This document shows positions 78 through 55,599 of a stretch of 64,000 nt of DNA, piece after piece. The position numbers were made by a program, and so were the translations under genes. Position 1 is the first letter of the stretch. The number at the start of each line of letters is the position of its first letter. The stretch is from Candidatus Thorarchaeota archaeon (lineage in GTDB: Archaea; Asgardarchaeota; Thorarchaeia; Thorarchaeales; Thorarchaeaceae): contig JBHLRQ010000004.1 in the NCBI GenBank assembly GCA_048882385.1, forward strand, positions 1 through 64,000, in the 5' to 3' direction. The notes below the pieces were generated by a model, which searched no databases, was not told the DNA's origin, and saw nothing but the letters and a program-made list of their open reading frames with translations.

Positions 78-3000
78 TCATCGTTTCATACGGATTACAA
101 CAATCACCAATATAACTACGACACCAACTGTTCCAAGTACTATCCAGATTGTCATAAGTGGAATAGCGCCATTTCTAGGAGTAGTGGTGGTCGTTGTAGT
201 TGTTGTAGTGGGGGTTGTAGGAGGTTCTGTGACTGTAACTATCACACTATCACTCACAGTGTTACTCCCTTGATCAGCTAATACAATGGTGTAGTTGTAT
301 TCTCCTGCAGTCAGACCATCAGCATCGACTATAATTGGATCTGCACTAGAGGTCCAATCCCCAGTTTCTGTAGAAACATCATTAACAAAGACCTCATAGG
401 AAGCAGGATTCAGGTCGGAACCATGCCAAATGATGTTGTTTCCAGTTTCTCCAGCAACATACTCGATATCGTCAGGACTGTCAATGGTAGGACTGATTGT
501 GTCTACTGCATCAACAAGTACCATGTCTGAAACATGGTTGCCAGCTCCATCATACACCACTATTGTTAGGTTGTGAGTTCCTACAACCAGTGGATCTAGT
601 TCTACCTCTATAGGATCAAAACACCATGTCCGATTTGCAATGACGGTTCCATTCTGGTAGACAACAAAGCGACCAGGATAGTTGTCGGATGCTTGCCATG
701 CAATCTCATTACCTAAAGTGCCGGCTTCAAAGACTTCATCACCAGGACTATCAACGGTTGGTGTTGTACCATCAGTCAAAGAGATTGGGTATCTATCAAC
801 ACTAGACGACATGGAAATTGGATAGGTTCCAGGTCCCACATAATCACTCCAAGCATTTCCAGTTGTTACATTATCATCCCAGAGATTGTCGGTTCCACCA
901 TCTGCGGCATTTCCAATACCATTCCATCCAATTTCGTTCCAGTATACCATAATGTTAGTAGCAGAAAGGCTACTCAACATCACACCATATCCACTATTAC
1001 TATAGACGGAGTTGTTGTGGATGACTCCATGAGTACCGGCAGAAATGAAAATCCCTGGTGCGCCAAATGTTTGATCCAAATAAGTCCCAGATACTACATT
1101 CGAGGAGATATTGAAGAAGTCAGCATTTCCAGCATAAACACCATATACAGCATTGCATGAGATATTGTTCTTATGAACAGTTATGTTGGTTCCTTCTAAT
1201 TGAAGCCCATATCGATTATGAGAAATTGAGTTGTATGATACTTCATCATAGGGACGAACCATCAATATAGGAGCAACTTGATTCTCAGGAATGCCTAGAC
1301 CGTTTCTACTGATTGAGTTGTTAAGATAGTCTGTTGATTCAGAATATGGACTATATATCGCAGAAAATGGATTATCATCGATTGCATTATCGATGATGGT
1401 TGTATTTGTTGATGAGATCAGTTGGAGTCCATAATACGAGTTTTGCTTCACAGTTGCACCTTCTAGGGAACAGTTAGTGGTCAAAACGAATGTCACTCCA
1501 GAACTAACATCAGAAAAGTCCCCACCAACGATATTGACTCTACTTGAATTTGCAACCAATATTTGACCATAGAGATTCCCATCTACGGTCAAATCGGTTT
1601 CATTGAAGAAATAACCAAAGTGTTTACCATTGAGAGTGTTATGCTTCTCGATGAAGTAGTAGTCTGCCGCAGCAGGCATTCCCATTCCTACAACGAGTAT
1701 TCCGTTTCTCAGAAACACATTATTTGCAATCAGAGTTGAGGGAGATGCAGCTATCAGTAAACCAGCGCCTTGAGAATCAGATATATCACAATTAGTGACT
1801 CTAGCATTTTGGCTTCCGAATACCCAGACGCTAGCAGCAAAACCCAATAAACTGTGAAGACGCGAGTTGTCCTCAAGTACCATGTTGTTGAATGTGCAGT
1901 TAACGCTGGAAAGCATCATTGCACCAGCGAAATGATTTCCAGAGGATTTCGCATCGTCTATAGTACAATTTGTACTAAACGAAATGAAAACACCCAAAGA
2001 GGACTCGTTAAAATCACCCCCTGTTATAGAGCAGAACTTGGCTTCATGAAGAATGACCTGTCCATATGTCGATCCATCAATACTCAGATGTGTCTGATTC
2101 CAAACGTAAAGAATAGGTTTGCTGTTAATTATATCACCTGATGTTGTAAATCCAGGATTTCCAGGTATTAGGTTCTGAGGAAAGAAGCCACAACCAGACA
2201 ATATGTTGTTACTACAAACAATAGACTGAGGGCTCACTAAGAGTATACCGCTGATGGGACTATCATAGATTGTATTCTGTAGTACAGTACAATTTTGAGA
2301 GTTGGACATTTCTATTGCTGCTGGATAATACATGGTCCCTTCTGATCCATAGTTAAAATCATGGAGCGTGTTCTGATCAAGTGTGCAATTAGCAGAATAT
2401 TCGACCTTGATGCCTGTGAATGAGTTTGCCACTTCATTCTCAGTTACATTACAGAAGTAGGATTGCATTATGTGAATTCCATTTCCACGGTTGTTATCAT
2501 TTCCATCAATGTGGTTTTGTTCCACTTCACAATTATAGCTATATGTTAAATCCACACCTGAATTAACATTTCCTTCGATCTCATTGTCAACACACCAGGA
2601 ATCATTCACATAGTACAAATTCACAGCAGTTGTCTTGCCAGAAAAGATGTTAGAGCCAATGTAGGCATTTGTGACATTTTCGAGTGTGATGCCAACTGAA
2701 TAGTCATCGAATTCTGGCGCAAAATAGCAATTTGTGATTTTAAAGTAGGCTCTTGTGTTTCTGATTATAATACATTCGAGATTACTTGTGATATTCAAGT
2801 CATCAATGACGAACGGAGTTGTTTCTGAACCGTCTCCATCGAACCCTAGTGTTGTGAAATTATCATCATGATCAATTAGAATTGGACTGCTATCAGTATA
2901 GCTCATAACCCAACTAGTTTTCTGTTGAGTATTATCCTCGTGATAGAATCCAAATGGTTGAATAAAAAACGGGGATACTATCAAGAAACAAAGGATACCA

Positions 3001-5167: not shown

Positions 5168-5440
5168 ATGACGGATCTGTACTTCGAAGATTACGAACCT
5201 GGGAGGAAACGGGCTCGTGGGTGGGAGTGTCTGGGTTCGGTGGTGATTCTCTGTGCATTGATTATCGGATTTACTCTGTTCTTCATGCTTTACGCATACA
5301 TCTGGGTACATATAGTGGAATCCCTGGTGCAACACGTTTTCGAGTTGACAATTATAGGTATGATCATAATTTTCTTGATTACGGTGTATGTGTGGAACAA
5401 TAGAAATTTGGAGAGAAGAAAGATTATGGCGGCCTCCTAA
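5168..5440 (+). CDS. Small hypothetical membrane protein, 2 TM
   Basis: 90-aa ORF 11 nt after pstk with two hydrophobic segments. Confidence 0.65.
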   Translation: MTDLYFEDYEPGRKRARGWECLGSVVILCALIIGFTLFFMLYAYIWVHIVESLVQHVFELTIIGMIIIFLITVYVWNNRNLERRKIMAAS

Positions 5441-5517
5441 GAGAATCGAACTCTCAACGCTTGCACGTTCATGGGTTTGAAGCCCACGGAACCAGACCAC
5501 CGGTCCTGTAGAAGGCC
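5427..5517 (-). tRNA. selC: tRNA-Sec (anticodon UCA)
   Basis: Minus strand folds as 9-bp acceptor GGCCTTCTA/TAGGAGGCC, 7-bp D-stem with UGGU loop, 6-bp anticodon stem with CU-UCA-AA loop, long variable arm AACGT-GCAA-GCGTT, 4-bp T-stem, G73 and encoded CCA (9/4 fold). Confidence 0.96.
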
Positions 5518-32736: not shown

Positions 32737-33474
32737 GTGATTATAGTAGGTGTCGAGTTGTTGAAACCATTTTTAGTGTTCAAGTGTCCCAAATGCAGTA
32801 ACTTCACAAATGCTCCAGCGGGTCAAAAGAGGAGAAGGTGTAGCTACTGTGGAACAATCATTGATATCAGAAAAGCAGCATGTGCAATTTTTGATACTCC
32901 TGAGATGGCTTCAACTGCAGTGAAGGAGTTCAATGCTGCACGAGGCGGAGATGAGTTTCAGAAATCGGTTGAACGATCAAGGGAGAGAGCACTTGCACTT
33001 ATGCCAAAGGACCCTGTTAAAGCGTCTGACATCTCAGATAGAGAACCGACTATCAGTTCTCCTGGAAAGAGGAAACGTCTCATGGCGCTTCTGGAGAAGG
33101 AAGCAAAGAATGCTCCGTGTTCTCTTGATAGGATAGAAGAAATATGTATGGAATATGAACTTGATTGGAAATGGGTCGAAAGTCAATTAGAAAACCTATC
33201 AAATAATGGAACACTCATATTTCCCAGACCGTGGTCAGTACAACTTGTTGCTACAAAAGAGAAGGATAGTGAGAGAGAATCTGAAACAAGTGATGTATCA
33301 ACAGATATTCTAGCACTCCTTTCAGAGTCAAATCAAGCTATCAAGGTTGTTGATATCGTCAAGAGATTTGAGAAGAGAGGAATATCGGAAACTTCAGTTA
33401 TTTCATCCTTAGAGAAGCTAATGCAACGCGGAGAGATCTTTGAACCAAGGAGCGGCAAGGTCCAATTGGTGTAA
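32737..33474 (+). CDS. Zinc-ribbon (DUF1922-like) plus winged-helix protein
   Basis: CPKC..CSYCG; two wHTH ends L..G.IFPRP / L.QRGEIFEPR. Confidence 0.8.
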   Translation: MIIVGVELLKPFLVFKCPKCSNFTNAPAGQKRRRCSYCGTIIDIRKAACAIFDTPEMASTAVKEFNAARGGDEFQKSVERSRERALALMPKDPVKASDISDREPTISSPGKRKRLMALLEKEAKNAPCSLDRIEEICMEYELDWKWVESQLENLSNNGTLIFPRPWSVQLVATKEKDSERESETSDVSTDILALLSESNQAIKVVDIVKRFEKRGISETSVISSLEKLMQRGEIFEPRSGKVQLV

Positions 33475-33514: not shown

Positions 33515-33913
33515 GTGGTACTAATGCCAATTGTGGAACTTGTGGCAAAAAAGACGTTGGAGCTTAATCCAGACATAGGTCTGGATGTAGTTGACCTGAT
33601 AGTTCTACTTTGGATGTACTCTAATCCATATGACAATAATAGAAGACAACTAAGTTCAATGCGCAATGTCCTCAAGATGTCTGAAACATTACAGGTTCCC
33701 GGGGGAGGATTAGATATCTCTGAGGAAGAACTCACGCAGATAGTATTAGGTAGTCTTCAGAAATTGAGGGGAATGGGTTTGGTGTATATACAGTCTGCAG
33801 GAATTCATTATGTGAAAGGAACCCTCACTGATGAAGGAGTAGATTTGATCAAGAAGTCTGTAACGACGCCAGTTTTGAAAAGAGTAACTGCTGAATTTGG
33901 AAATAATCCGTGA
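33515..33913 (+). CDS. Hypothetical winged-helix-like protein
   Basis: SLQKLRGMGLV...LTDEG pattern. Confidence 0.75.
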   Translation: MVLMPIVELVAKKTLELNPDIGLDVVDLIVLLWMYSNPYDNNRRQLSSMRNVLKMSETLQVPGGGLDISEEELTQIVLGSLQKLRGMGLVYIQSAGIHYVKGTLTDEGVDLIKKSVTTPVLKRVTAEFGNNP

Positions 33914-33946
33914 TTTGGTTTTTTTGAATTAGGGCAAGTGACAATG

Positions 33947-33952
33947 TTTAAA
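33947..33952 (+). promoter_or_regulatory. TATA box of the rpl22 operon
   Basis: TTTAAA about 23 nt before the first leader hairpin, downstream of a T-tract at 33919-33925. Confidence 0.5.
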
Positions 33953-33974
33953 TGCAAAACTCTTCCGAAACCGG

Positions 33975-34160
33975 ACTGCTGCTCAACTGAGATAGCTGTT
34001 TCAGAACCGATGGAAGCAGTGCAGACAAACTAGTTCTGCTCGCGAGAACAGTCTGCAGACGTGTGCCGGATAGGTTCTGGAGTGGTTGCGAGAGCACAAC
34101 GATGACTTTACAGCTTTCATAGAATGCAAGCTGGAACAAGTCCCCACAGCGGAAGTGAGG
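33975..34160 (+). ncRNA. Putative structured 5' leader or ncRNA upstream of rpl22
   Basis: Five consecutive stem-loops, one GNRA-capped (see findings). Confidence 0.6.
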
Positions 34161-34164
34161 CATT

Positions 34165-34629
34165 ATGCCAACATATGGATATTCAATCATGGGCATTGAC
34201 CCGGATAGAACAGCAATTGCTAGTGGAAGAAACATGCGGGTTTCCCCGAAACAATGCAGAGAAGTCTGTAATGAAATCAAGGGGATGATGCTGGATAAGG
34301 CAATTGATCTTCTGGAACTCGTAATAGAGGAGAAAGCTTGGATTCCCTACAGGCGTCACAGGAAGAAACGTGGCCATCATGCAGGAATGAAGAAATGGCC
34401 ATCTGGTGGACATCCGGTTAAAGCATCAGAGCATATCTTAGCTGTTTTGCGGAATGCAGAAGCCAATGCAGATACAAAAGGTCTGGACATTGATAGACTC
34501 AGAATAGCGCATGCAGCAACGCAACGGGGTAGAACCTACAAGAAATACATTGAGCGAGCATTTGGTAGAAGCACTCCGTATTTTGAGAACACTTCCCATG
34601 TGGAGATAGTATTAGAAGAGGTGAGTTAA
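34165..34629 (+). CDS. rpl22: 50S ribosomal protein uL22
   Basis: VSPK, NAEANA..KGLD, ERAFGR, HVEIVL. Confidence 0.97.
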   Translation: MPTYGYSIMGIDPDRTAIASGRNMRVSPKQCREVCNEIKGMMLDKAIDLLELVIEEKAWIPYRRHRKKRGHHAGMKKWPSGGHPVKASEHILAVLRNAEANADTKGLDIDRLRIAHAATQRGRTYKKYIERAFGRSTPYFENTSHVEIVLEEVS

Positions 34630-35543
34630 TGTCAGCTGTCAAGTACTTTATCGAACAGAACTCTCGTAGACTTGCGATTGATGAGTTTTTGGCAACTGAA
34701 CTCAACGCTGCGGGATATGGTGGCGTCGAGATCAGAAAGATGCCAATGAAGACAGAGGTCGTTATTCATGCCTCTCGACCAGGAGTAGTAATCGGTCGTC
34801 GTGGTGCAAAGATTAGAGAGCTTACCTACATTCTCGAGAATGAGTTTGGAATTGAGAATGTTCAGATTGAGGTTAGTGAGATTGAGAATCCTTGGCTTGA
34901 TGCAGCTGTAATGGCATCAAGGTTGGCCAGACAACTCGAGAGAGGCGTTCGTTTCAGAAGAATGGCTTACTGGATCCTCAGACGTGTAATGCGAGCTGGA
35001 GCAATTGGCTGTGAGATAATTGTGAAAGGCAAACTGTCTAGCAGAAGAGCTAGGTATCAGAAATTCAAACAGGGTACAATCGCAAAAACTGGAGAACCTG
35101 CTGACATGTTTGTAGACCATGCAAATGATTTGGCAGTGCTAAAACCAGGCGTGATAGGAATTCAAGTCCGAATTATGAGACCTGATGCAAAACTTCCTGG
35201 AGTTATTCAGATCAAAACACCGAAACCTAGGAAGAAAGAGGAAATTGAGCTTGTAAAGAGGCCAGATGAAGAACCCAGTGATGAAGTTGAAGCAGTTGAT
35301 GAAACACTTGAGGGAATCACTGACATAGATGAACTCAGAGAACTGGAAGAACTAGATGGTCTAGAGCTCATTGACGACGAACTGGAGCCGCAAGAGAAGG
35401 AAGAACCCGAACCAGAAATCGTGGAGGAACCTCCAATGGATGAAGAAGTCATTGAAGATGCTGAAATCAGTGAACCAGCAGAGGAAACGATCATCGAAGA
35501 CCTCAAAGAACTAGATGAATTGGACGAGGGAGGTACTGAGTAA
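34629..35543 (+). CDS. rps3: 30S ribosomal protein uS3 with long acidic tail
   Basis: RPGVVIGRRGAKIREL KH domain, GCEIIVKGKL, KPGVIGIQVRI. Confidence 0.97.
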   Translation: MSAVKYFIEQNSRRLAIDEFLATELNAAGYGGVEIRKMPMKTEVVIHASRPGVVIGRRGAKIRELTYILENEFGIENVQIEVSEIENPWLDAAVMASRLARQLERGVRFRRMAYWILRRVMRAGAIGCEIIVKGKLSSRRARYQKFKQGTIAKTGEPADMFVDHANDLAVLKPGVIGIQVRIMRPDAKLPGVIQIKTPKPRKKEEIELVKRPDEEPSDEVEAVDETLEGITDIDELRELEELDGLELIDDELEPQEKEEPEPEIVEEPPMDEEVIEDAEISEPAEETIIEDLKELDELDEGGTE

Positions 35544-38579: not shown

Positions 38580-38750
38580 ATGATGAGTGCAAAGAAAGAT
38601 CGTCCTAAACGTAAGAGAATGGGTAAAGGCAGTAGAACATGCGTCCGTTGTGGTACACATCAAGCAATCATACGATCATATAGCTTGAACATGTGTAGAC
38701 GCTGTTTCAGAGAAACAGCGGAAAAGCTCGGGTTCAGAAAATATCAGTAA
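38580..38750 (+). CDS. rps14: 30S ribosomal protein uS14 (56 aa, not in the ORF track)
   Basis: [11 protein letters not shown]...[19 protein letters not shown]. Confidence 0.96.
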
Positions 38751-39749: not shown

Positions 39750-40577
39750 ATGTCCAAGAAACCAAAACTGAGCGATGTTCCAGGAGTTGGACCAGCAATG
39801 GAAGAAAAACTTCGGGATGCTGGTATCAAGACAGTCGTTAGTCTATCGAAGATGGATCCTAAGAAACTCTCTGAAAAGGTAGAAGGTGTCGGTGAAGCCA
39901 GTGCCAAGAGTTTCATTTCTGAAGCAAAGAAATTGATTCCAAAGGATGCCGCGAAGCCCAAAGAAAAGGCTCCCGGGAAACCTAAGAAGAAGGCTGAAAC
40001 CAAAGCTAAAGCAGAGAAAGCCAAACTGAAAAAGAAGGTTTCAGAAGAGAAACCAAAGCTTAAGAAGAAAAAAGCTGCTGCACCCAAAAAGAAGAAGGTC
40101 ACACCAAAGAAGAAACCCAAAGTGGAAGTCCCTCTCAGAGTCAAAAATACTGACCAGCGTCTATTGAGGATTGCTAGACAGAAAAAGAAACGCATGCCTC
40201 AATTCCGTCATGAGCAAGCGCACAGATGGATTCGTGTAAGCGACAATTGGCGAAAGGTAAGAGGAATAGACAGTGCAACTCGTGAAAAAAGTAAGGGACG
40301 AATTGCAATGGTGTCCTCAGGATATCGAACCCCAAAGGCTGTTAGAGACCTACATCCATCACTCTATGTTGAGGTGAGAGTTCACAGACCTTCTGAGATT
40401 GAGAATCTCGACCCTGAAGTGCATGCTGTTAGAATTGCAGCAACAGTAGGTTCTAGGAAGAAACAAGAGATACTTGCGGCAGCAGATGCCAAACTTCTAC
40501 GTGTTCTCAATCCTGGTAGGAGCGAAGAAATCGGTGAGGAAGACCTCTTCACAGATCTTGATTTGGAGGTGGATTAG
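39750..40577 (+). CDS. rpl32e: 50S ribosomal protein eL32 with N-terminal HhH domain and Lys-rich linker
   Basis: WRKVRGIDS, GYRTPKAVRDLHPS core; VPGVGP and VEGVGE HhH motifs. Confidence 0.93.
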   Translation: MSKKPKLSDVPGVGPAMEEKLRDAGIKTVVSLSKMDPKKLSEKVEGVGEASAKSFISEAKKLIPKDAAKPKEKAPGKPKKKAETKAKAEKAKLKKKVSEEKPKLKKKKAAAPKKKKVTPKKKPKVEVPLRVKNTDQRLLRIARQKKKRMPQFRHEQAHRWIRVSDNWRKVRGIDSATREKSKGRIAMVSSGYRTPKAVRDLHPSLYVEVRVHRPSEIENLDPEVHAVRIAATVGSRKKQEILAAADAKLLRVLNPGRSEEIGEEDLFTDLDLEVD

Positions 40578-42970: not shown

Positions 42971-43501
42971 ATGTCTTGGGACGATGATGATGAAACTCGG
43001 AGAAAACTCCGACGTTGGTTTGGGGACTACATACCAGAAGAAATGTTTCGGATGATCGAAGAAATGATGGAGAAAATGATGAGCGAGATGAATGAAGGCT
43101 CCTTGTTTGATAGTAAAGCCTTTGAGGAAATGCTCAGAAACCCTGAGGGAACAAGTCCTTTCGTCTTCGGATTTTCAATGAATGTTGGTCCCGATGGAAA
43201 ACCCATCATCAAGAGATTTGGCAACCCATCTGGAGATGTAGGTGTAGAACCATCACCAAGCCTTGAACCCCTTGTGGATGTTGTCGAGGAGAACGACGAG
43301 ATTATTGTGGTTGCAGAAGTTCCAGGCGTAGAGAGAGATGAAATAAAGGTTCGAATCAAGGGAACAACTCTTACAATTCATTCTGAGAACCTTGAACGAC
43401 CATATCACAAGGTCATTGAACTTCCAAGCAAAGTGACGAAAGACGAAGCGAAATCAGCCATTCGTAATGGCGTACTGGAGGTACGTCTCAAGAAAGCATA
43501 G
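42971..43501 (+). CDS. hsp20: Small heat shock protein (archaeal Hsp20)
   Basis: PFVFGFSMNVGPDGKP..RFGN, EPLVDV, AEVPGV, NGVLEV. Confidence 0.95.
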   Translation: MSWDDDDETRRKLRRWFGDYIPEEMFRMIEEMMEKMMSEMNEGSLFDSKAFEEMLRNPEGTSPFVFGFSMNVGPDGKPIIKRFGNPSGDVGVEPSPSLEPLVDVVEENDEIIVVAEVPGVERDEIKVRIKGTTLTIHSENLERPYHKVIELPSKVTKDEAKSAIRNGVLEVRLKKA

Positions 43502-43516
43502 GTTGGAGAGATATCG

Positions 43517-43966
43517 ATGCAAAAACGAAGATCAAAGAAAATCAACAAGATGCGAGGACGTCGTGCATCAGGTTATGGACACACAAAGGGTCATCGAGCT
43601 TCAGGGCAGAGAGGTGGCAAAGGCATGGCAGGTTCCAAAAAACATCACTACATCAAAGTCATGCAGGAAGACCCAAGATATTTTGGAAAATGGGGATTCA
43701 AGAGACCTCAGAAACTCATTGATAACCTAGTAGTTCTAAACATCGGAGATATCGATGAGGCGGCTGACAGACTTGTGGCAAGAGAGTTAGCCACAATGAA
43801 AGGCAAGCAGTATAATATTGATGTTTCAAAGCTTGGAATTGACCGAATACTAGGATCTGGAAAAGTAACCCGGAAGCTGAATCTTACGGGTGTGAAAGCA
43901 ATCACTCCAAGAGCCAGGGAAAAAGTCACTGGTATTGGAGGAACAGTCGATCTTCCAGAAGAATAG
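43517..43966 (+). CDS. rpl15: 50S ribosomal protein uL15
   Basis: GQRGGKGMAG, YFGKWGF, ILGSG. Confidence 0.96.
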   Translation: MQKRRSKKINKMRGRRASGYGHTKGHRASGQRGGKGMAGSKKHHYIKVMQEDPRYFGKWGFKRPQKLIDNLVVLNIGDIDEAADRLVARELATMKGKQYNIDVSKLGIDRILGSGKVTRKLNLTGVKAITPRAREKVTGIGGTVDLPEE

Positions 43967-50371: not shown

Positions 50372-50723
50372 GGCTCTGGAGCAAAAGCGCGACTGACGGT
50401 ACTCACTCTTCGGAGTGAGCGCTGAGGAAACTCCCAACTGCATGTCGACACCAGTCCTGCTGATGCAGGAAGGCGAGAGCCTTGCTCTGGGAACAGAAAC
50501 GACACCTCCAAACTGGATACGACGATGATGCAGAGATCCAATCTGTTGAGGATCAGTTTGGATAGGTTGAAACGGCCCATCACTGGTTCAGCAATCTCAA
50601 GATTAGGCTTGCGATGAGTCGACCTGAAGCCTAGGGTAGAGAGCATAGTTTGATGTCGCGAAGCTCCTTTCTGGTAACGGATTGGAGCAGAACAGAATTG
50701 GGGTTACTCTTTGGACCAGAGCC
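50372..50723 (+). ncRNA. rnpB: RNase P RNA
   Basis: P1 GGCTCTGG/CCAGAGCC, CR-I GAGGAAACTCC, CR-II ACAGAAAC, CR-III TGAAACGG, CR-V AACAGAATTGGGGTTA. Confidence 0.95.
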
Positions 50724-55480: not shown

Positions 55481-55599
55481 GCCGAGGTAGCCAAGCCCGG
55501 TTCACGGCGACAGCCTGGAACCAACAGCCATTCTGGCGATTTGCTCAGAAAGCTGTTCTCCAATAGGAGGCATGAGTTCGAATCTCATCCTCGGCGCCA
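55481..55599 (+). tRNA. tRNA-Ser(GGA) with a 30-nt intron at 37/38 (55521-55550)
   Basis: Acceptor GCCGAGG/CCTCGGC, anticodon stem ACAGC/GCTGT, CT-GGA-A, long variable arm, TTCGAAT T-loop, encoded CCA, BHB-like junction. Confidence 0.93.

Follow-up and report, generated by a model that had tools for sequence, protein, structure and literature searches.

The leader of the Escherichia coli S10 operon is a long, structured leader that stands before an operon holding rpl22 and rps3. The known ligand of this leader is L4 (PMC7247131). Feedback by uS8 has been described for the E. coli spc operon and for yeast RPS22B, both of which are repressed by this protein (PMC13232506; also PMC4176348), and the core features of the uS8 site are set out in the accessible text of the same papers (PMC4176348, PMC13232506). 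Cis-regulatory RNAs described in archaea are few. Eckert and Weinberg (2020) added four new r-leader motifs to what had been "only a handful", and their archaeal candidates belong to eL15 (Euryarchaeota), S15 (Halobacteria, Methanomicrobia) and L4 (Archaeoglobi) (PMC7247131, accessible text). The archaeal eL15 leader is based on the bulged-G / loop-E module, which is a frequent protein site (PMC7247131, accessible text).

The element described here precedes rpl22 in the window (the whole 64,000-nt stretch of Thorarchaeota DNA that was analyzed) and is best read as a ~190-nt structured 5' untranslated leader of an mRNA that would start at rpl22 and reach L30/L15. Like the S10-operon leader, it is long, structured and placed ahead of an rpl22/rps3 operon; it differs from the S10 leader in that rpl4 lies outside the operon, the two are unrelated in sequence and an attenuator T-run is absent. 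It shares with the leaders of Eckert and Weinberg a conserved, covarying structure in the (here predicted) 5' UTR of archaeal r-protein genes, and its internal loop may be of the bulged-G / E-loop-like kind on which the eL15 motif is built (PMC7247131, accessible text). In contrast to those leaders, however, it concerns other genes, other lineages and other folds, and it heads a ~20-gene Asgard operon. Since their motifs are in Rfam and the leader has no Rfam match, these motifs do not match the leader. A search of Rfam 15 over 33914-34164 at gathering thresholds returned nothing, and at E <= 10 over 33700-34400 it returned two weak matches only, both outside the leader. A full-text search of the main texts of largely non-subscription literature yielded no description of an Asgard cis-regulatory RNA or of such a leader, and in the accessible text of PMC10833476, on r-protein clusters in Asgard genomes, the words "promoter" and "break" do not occur and L22/uL22 appears only in gene-cluster descriptions. 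The leader is a new motif in the known class of ribosomal leaders and, as far as the literature search shows, the first one proposed for Asgard archaea and for an archaeal L22-to-spc-type operon.

A 250-nt gap (33914-34164) separates rpl22 (34165-34629; Pfam PF00237, 1.8e-28) from a 132-aa ORF without a Pfam match (33515-33913, +), which lies directly 5' of the leader. The genes 3' of rpl22 are, by Pfam, rps3, rpl29, the gene for RNase P subunit p29 (rpp29), rps17, rpl14, rpl24, rps4e and rpl5, followed by an rps14-like ORF, rps8, rpl6, an HhH-rpl32e fusion, rpl19e, rpl18, rps5 and rpl30, and then by an Hsp20-domain gene, a 149-aa ORF and secY. The short rps14-like ORF (38581-38750) was assigned by reading and not by Pfam; the 149-aa ORF (43517-43966), which occupies the usual place of rpl15, was likewise assigned by position and not by Pfam. 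The first-pass annotation had the operon start at rpl22, apart from rps19, and this was borne out, because rps19 is located on a different contig, where the next gene is an unrelated membrane-protein-like ORF. The C-terminus of the 132-aa ORF (...EFG..P) is conserved in the genus and recognizable in the sister family, and the ORF before it (32737-33474, +) has a weak winged-helix match (TBPIP, E 2e-4, below cut-off). Within the operon, the Hsp20/alpha-crystallin-domain gene (176 aa, 42971-43501, +) lies between rpl30 and the 149-aa ORF, and uS3 (34629-35543, +; 304 aa) carries a long, very acidic C-terminal tail beyond its S3_C domain, which ends at residue 182. Other RNA genes in the window are a tRNA-Sec (5431-5517, -; 58.2 bits), an archaeal RNase P RNA (50377-50718, +; 164 bits) and a 116-nt tRNA match (55481-55596, +) with, probably, an intron inside.

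From the geometry of archaeal promoters, which is established knowledge, we infer that the BRE/TATA sequences at 33941-33953 (Table 1) are the leader promoter. The TATA box previously placed at 33947 was found there as TTTAAAT (33947-33953), and it begins 26-28 nt 5' of alignment column 8 (window 33975) in 74 of 78 family sequences. From the predicted start, the leader would be transcribed as a 5' UTR together with rpl22. The word TTCCG at 33963-33967 is complementary to CGGAA of the ribosome-binding site and is kept in several genera; it lies only 10-15 nt past the TATA box and is therefore probably not transcribed, and it might be a protein-binding promoter element. At the other end of the leader, the word CGGAAGTGAG is almost invariant across the family, and the 3' end of the same-genus 16S rRNA reads ...GGATCACCTCCT. 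The core does not appear to sequester the Shine-Dalgarno site, as the duplex energy is -16.7 vs -16.4 kcal/mol for shuffles and no conserved pairing was seen. The G+C of the leader is 0.50-0.51 vs 0.37-0.45 in the flanks, and a scan for bacterial-type promoters and terminators found nothing relevant. The start codon of rpl22 itself varies, being ATT and not ATG in one relative (locus L067, genome G061) and GTG in three others.

The structure was probed by comparison of relatives. Folded singly, the window sequence 33970-34170 has an MFE of -61.8 kcal/mol on the plus strand vs -58.6 +/- 4.3 kcal/mol in shuffles (z = -0.75; 47 of 200 shuffles fold equally well), which is no better than chance, and its minus strand gives z = -1.03; the predicted structured element is one established by comparison only. 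RNAalifold was applied to alignments A1 (25 genus sequences) and A2 (78 distinct family sequences), and a further alignment, A3 (79 sequences), was fitted to covariance model R1 and leans to the model by construction. In both A1 and A2, TAGCTGTTTCAGAAC pairs with GTTCTGGAGTGGTTG, the two strands of helix P1. In A2, 94.3% of 2408 cells are paired vs 35-46% with partners slid by 1-3 columns, and changes on both sides occur in 14 of 31 pairs (118 cells), values reached by 0 of 500 column shuffles. The same picture is seen in A3 (16 of 33 pairs, 126 cells). Alternative pair types are found in several genera each (pair 40/115: G-C in 4 genera, A-U in 13; pair 39/116: A-U in 6 genera, U-A in 1), and this spread indicates more than one evolutionary event. 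Furthermore, MFE folds of many full-length single leaders return the same extended hairpin. G-U pairs account for one in five cells and assign the element to the plus strand: 93.6% of cells are paired on this strand vs 75.2% when it is read as minus. Considered together, these comparisons make a functional, structured leader on the plus strand very probable.

The first-pass annotation had proposed an undescribed structured RNA made up of a series of separate hairpins. The first half of this proposal stands, as no Rfam family matches the leader, it is absent among the four archaeal r-leaders in the accessible text of PMC7247131, and covariation in relatives, on which that reading had been made to depend, is present in A2 and A3. 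Most of the multi-hairpin fold, on the other hand, does not hold, since the core is a single extended hairpin with long-range pairing. In the fold predicted from the alignments, a long, imperfect hairpin spans ~33977-34098; behind it come a hairpin of variable sequence (34104-34142) and the Shine-Dalgarno site. Some of the stems proposed earlier are retained in it. GCAGAC/GTCTGC (34021-26/34051-56) and GTTCT/AGAAC (34033-37/34045-49) are 96% and 88% paired, respectively, in the 78 family sequences, with compensatory changes, and GACTT/AAGTC with CAGCTT/AAGCTG (34104-34142) is 87% paired in the 25 genus sequences, a stable hairpin occupying this place across the family. Other stems gave way. 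Across the family, pairing reaches only 61% for ACTGCT/AGCAGT and 59.5% for CTGAGA/TTTCAG, and A-to-C/U changes in TTTCAG are compensated 75 nt downstream, at 34076-34082, as part of a long-range helix. CCGGA/TCTGG and TGC/GCA are fragments of long-range helices that are conserved and show no covariation of their own.

Table 1. Features of the rpl22 leader and its surroundings, in window coordinates.
Feature	Position	Strand	Basis
Promoter (predicted): BRE-like ACAATG, then TATA box TTTAAAT	33941-33953	+	TATA conserved in family alignment
Predicted transcription start	33975-33977	+	TATA distance; outer helix P1' pairs from ~33977
Covariance model R1 match	33970-34100	+	125.2 bits, E 9.6e-29; sole match in genome
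Alternative hairpin P0 (33976-33981 with 33993-33998)	33976-33998	+	excludes P1' and outer P1
P1' 5' strand (TG.TGCTC), outer helix	33977-33984	+	RNAduplex; slid-partner comparison
P1 5' strand TAGCTGTTTCAGAAC	33993-34007	+	covariation
Internal loop 5' side (CGAT) + GG	34008-34013	+	GG pairs with CC 34066-67
P2b + P2 5' strands (GCAGT GCAGAC)	34016-34026	+	CAGT invariant 78/78
Apical hairpin GTTCT-GCTCGCG-AGAAC	34033-34049	+	genus conservation, family pairing
P2 3' strand (GTCTGC) + two-bulge strand A-N-A-C-G-T-G-T-G	34051-34065	+	invariance, covariation
CC + internal loop 3' side (GGATAG)	34066-34073	+	loop covariation, GG/CC conservation
P1 3' strand GTTCTGGAGTGGTTG	34074-34088	+	covariation; many conserved G-U pairs
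P1' 3' strand (GAGCA.CA)	34092-34098	+	RNAduplex; slid-partner comparison
P3, hairpin with variable sequence	34104-34142	+	pairing in genus, z-scores in family
Shine-Dalgarno-like GGAAGTGAGG, spacer, rpl22 ATG	34151-34167	+	GGAAGTGAGG at 34151-34160

The extended hairpin consists, in order, of P1', P1, a purine-rich internal loop, the GG/CC pairs, the two-bulge stem P2b, P2 and the apical hairpin. The P1' duplex has a mean energy of -9.6 vs -6.3 kcal/mol in shuffles (RNAduplex, n = 78) and is 78% paired vs 39-49% with slid partners, a level of support weaker than that for the inner helices. In P1 (columns 28-40/115-127), double changes are found in 9 of 13 pairs with 95% of cells paired, and in 11 of 15 pairs on the model-fitted A3. 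Further inwards, G48 is invariant in A2 and G47 is a G in 72 of 78 sequences, both GG/CC pairs are G-C in 79 of 79 sequences of A3, and the columns of the internal loop co-vary in a non-Watson-Crick manner (U/U 42, A/A 11). The P2b stem contains one 2-nt and one 1-nt bulge, pair 60/90 of P2 occurs as GC (41), AU (22) and GU (14), and columns 95, 97-99, 102 and 103 show the same base in all 78 sequences. All but one column of the apical hairpin are invariant in the 25 genus sequences. At the position of P3, the family has a mean z of -2.4, with z < -1 in 95% of the 78 sequences. In total, all 78 sequences agree at more than 15 unpaired or never-varying positions, among them CAGT and, on the opposite strand, A-N-A-C-G-T-G-T-G-C-C. 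Because these positions are unpaired or do not covary and yet are invariant, specific recognition is suggested, most simply by a protein.

A second conformation is available to the 5' end of the leader, as 33993-33998 pairs either downstream, in outer P1, or upstream with 33976-33981, in hairpin P0. P0 is 79% paired vs 14-61% with slid partners and has 42 cells changed on both sides, and much of this support comes from one genus-level swap. When the two states were forced in the 78 sequences, the extended fold was more stable in 74 with a mean gap of 5.2 kcal/mol; in the window sequence P0 and the extended fold are isoenergetic (-40.0 vs -39.9 kcal/mol). On these energies, the P0/P1' alternatives would fit either an intermediate of co-transcriptional folding or a leader with two regulated states. 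That the leader is a true two-state switch (P0 vs P1'/P1), set by a small molecule, an ion, a growth signal or uS8, is considered very unlikely.

The leader is a feature of one family. All 24 sampled genomes of the same genus align over the entire gap with 75-86% identity, and the leader is present in 81 of 86 genomes of the window's family, covering 16 of 16 genera. Most matches outside the genus begin at ~33996, where the long-range helix starts. The five family genomes without the leader are 60-88% complete, and the rpl22 5' region was also missing from them in the same search. Results with model R1 agree. Of 87 genomes in the order, 81 carry a single R1 match each; these 81 belong without exception to the window's family, and in every one the match directly precedes rpl22. 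When a sample of the phylum was scanned (E <= 0.1) with Infernal's stricter filters, through which weak relatives could be missed, R1 matched all 26 genomes from the family and none of the 124 drawn from 26 other families. Among named records, the leader occurs at 55 of 62 L22 loci; these are all 55 Thor-type loci, whose L22 proteins are 77-94% identical to that of the window, and the 7 distant loci have none. In the only sister-family genome (locus L026, ~1854-2090, minus strand of the locus), rpl22 is likewise separated from rps19. The gap of ~200 nt before rpl22 is AT-rich there and contains TATA-like words, a long predicted hairpin, the word GCUCGCG known from the Thor apical loop and a ribosome site of the same CGAAGUGAGG type. 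Homology of this gap to R1 is not significant (5.1 bits, E 3.8), and the gap may hold a leader that is either diverged or analogous. A further family of the phylum has rps19 ~110 nt 5' of rpl22.

A protein of the operon has a comparable distribution. The rpl32e product (39750-40577, +; 275 aa; PF14520 + PF01655) carries an N-terminal helix-hairpin-helix domain, and full-length or N-terminally extended matches to HhH-L32e were found in 26 of 26 sampled family genomes. Outside the family, the best matches listed cover the L32e part only (query ~110-275), with 182 further matches beyond those listed. HhH-eL32 is a possible additional nucleic-acid-binding ligand candidate for the leader. Its distribution equals that of the leader, yet both describe one clade and therefore one evolutionary event; the same holds for any link between the leader and lineage-specific protein features, because the evidence comes entirely from one family.

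R-protein leaders frequently, though not obligatorily, resemble the rRNA site of their ligand; here, no overall similarity to rRNA was detected, and a small motif match to helix 21 remains. The numbers of 8-mers in common with same-genus 23S (7 vs ~8.7 expected by our own arithmetic) and 16S (4 vs 4.2 expected) are at chance level, none is shared with the genome's own 5S, and 9-mers in common with 5S, 23S and 16S are likewise at chance level. Two 8-mers that lie ~70 nt apart in 23S (1116, 1187) have no common fold, and R1 run without filters found nothing inside rRNA genes. A 5S-like idea, suggested by sequence words, was dropped after comparison with the genome's own 5S rRNA (RF00001), which is located elsewhere, on contig C29. 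In the bulged-G / loop-E consensus, AGUA faces GAA, and the module comprises a bulged G together with a sheared G-A and a trans U-A pair. The internal loop of the leader, whose commonest form is GGUAG opposite CGAUG (G/A 43, A/U 45, A/A 14 of 78), may resemble this module. In the K-turn, the site of L7Ae/eL30, tandem sheared G-A pairs follow a 3-nt bulge, and each strand carries GA beside the C-stem; as read from A2, the strand opposite G44-A45 has GG/GU instead of GA.

By precedent and by a partial motif match, uS8 appears to be the best ligand lead, albeit a weak and doubtful one. The comparison is with the E. coli spc-operon site, which mimics 16S helix 21, and with the yeast RPS22B intron structure; the operon behind the leader, too, contains rps8. 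In our own reading, the leader also resembles the uS8 site in having a two-bulge stem with an invariant looped-out A next to a G-C pair. All 78 sequences have G54-C98, A97, A95 and U55, and A97 beside G54-C98 supplies the looped-out A and its neighboring pair; we take these to be the counterparts of A642 and G597-C643. In addition, same-genus 16S helix 21 has the arrangement GU[helix]...[helix]AUAC found in the leader. The match is partial. The candidate for the third base of the (G597-C643)-U641 triple, or of an isosteric set, is U in 36, G in 34 and A in 8 of the 78 sequences, and the G-C pair does not change. The second triple, A595-(A596-U644), was not found, as there is no bulge on the 5' strand and no counterpart of A595 is seen; A53-U100 is present with an extra base, the single-base bulge G99, on the 3' strand. 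The leader also differs from helix 21 in having no overall sequence or model similarity to it, and from the E. coli spc site in its location, as it precedes the whole operon, ~4.6 kb upstream of rps8, instead of lying at the start of rpl5. Alternative candidate ligands are uL22, as the product of the closest gene, and the 5S binders uL5/uL18.

The leader lies directly upstream of r-protein genes on the same strand, with its status as a UTR deduced from the position of the promoter, and it has a secondary structure with covariation, both of which are found in r-protein leaders. That it functions as an r-protein feedback site is, on balance, probable. In the mechanism proposed, the first ~125 nt, transcribed from the BRE/TATA promoter, can fold into the long imperfect hairpin, to be followed by P3 and an exposed Shine-Dalgarno site. 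The invariant region of internal loop and bulges would be recognized by one of the ribosomal proteins that the operon encodes. Once in excess of free rRNA, this protein would bind the leader and lower expression of rpl22 and of translationally coupled genes downstream, a kind of feedback known from bacterial r-protein operons. Competition of P0 with P1' and outer P1 would give a two-state fold that binding could bias, and candidate routes to lower expression are entrapment of the initiating ribosome, a bias between the folds, and decay. Points that argue against the feedback reading are the lack of Shine-Dalgarno-sequestering pairing, the lack of rRNA similarity and the partial nature of the uS8 likeness, together with the chance-level fold of the window sequence taken singly and the restriction of the evidence to one family.

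The first two of these points would suit a constitutive element for mRNA stability or processing, which involves no r-protein feedback. Here the base-paired 5' end (P1' or P0) and the hairpin would protect the transcript of 20 genes against 5'-end-dependent decay, or would label a site for processing, and the predicted 5' end does fall within a helix in both conformers, with the Shine-Dalgarno site not sequestered and rRNA mimicry not detected. A protective hairpin, however, needs no invariant bulges or loop bases, and the invariance of more than 15 such positions across all 78 sequences makes this explanation unlikely. It is quite unlikely that the ~125-nt hairpin is a separate or processed small RNA, released or ending before rpl22 and acting in trans or in an RNP. 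Although the element has its own conserved, predicted promoter, a G+C raised as in archaeal ncRNAs and a core far more conserved than the P3 region behind it, a run of at least five T occurs in 0 of 78 leaders (hence no terminator-like T run), a TATA-like word between the core and the ATG is seen in only 3, leaving 75 of 78 without a second promoter, and leader length is confined to 183-204 nt; these findings argue for a leader rather than a separate gene. The fixed distance to rpl22, the single copy tied to this gene, the absence of a matching Rfam family, and the absence by eye of a C/D, H/ACA or K-turn signature in the alignment likewise speak against a small RNA.

A riboswitch-like or physical sensor would have P0 vs P1'/P1 biased by a small molecule, an ion or temperature, and not by a protein. 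Both exclusive pairings have comparative support and their fold energies are close, the mean gap being 5.2 kcal/mol and the window sequence having none. This explanation is nevertheless improbable, as the fold is one rod-like hairpin that contains neither a multi-helix junction nor a pseudoknot pocket, none of the known riboswitch classes matches it, and one genus-level change accounts for much of the P0 support. The possibility that there is no RNA element, and that the hairpins arise by chance or belong to an antisense protein gene (110-aa ORF, 33948-34280, -), draws on the single-sequence z-score and on antisense stop-free stretches with a median of 58 of ~64 codons. As far as sequence comparison goes, its probability is negligible. 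No sense or antisense ORF is conserved in relatives: the three antisense frames are open in 13, 6 and 18 of the 78 sequences, all three are interrupted by stops in 43 of them, and a frame consistent with the 110-aa ORF is open in at most 18 of 78. The covariation and the G-U asymmetry, moreover, favor an RNA on the plus strand. The preferred reading is a leader whose invariant core would mediate feedback by an r-protein of the operon.

An RNA structure found family-wide heads the largest ribosomal-protein operon and probably tunes the production of the proteins encoded there. With a defined RNA, few candidate ligands and a set of invariant nucleotides, the balance between r-protein and rRNA synthesis in Asgard archaea becomes testable. 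Were the leader a true two-state switch, no earlier controller of bulk ribosome synthesis, whether riboswitch-like or based on feedback, would have been seen in Asgard archaea, and this one would act from the head of a 20-gene operon. Should uS8 prove to be the ligand, all three domains of life would share feedback by this protein.
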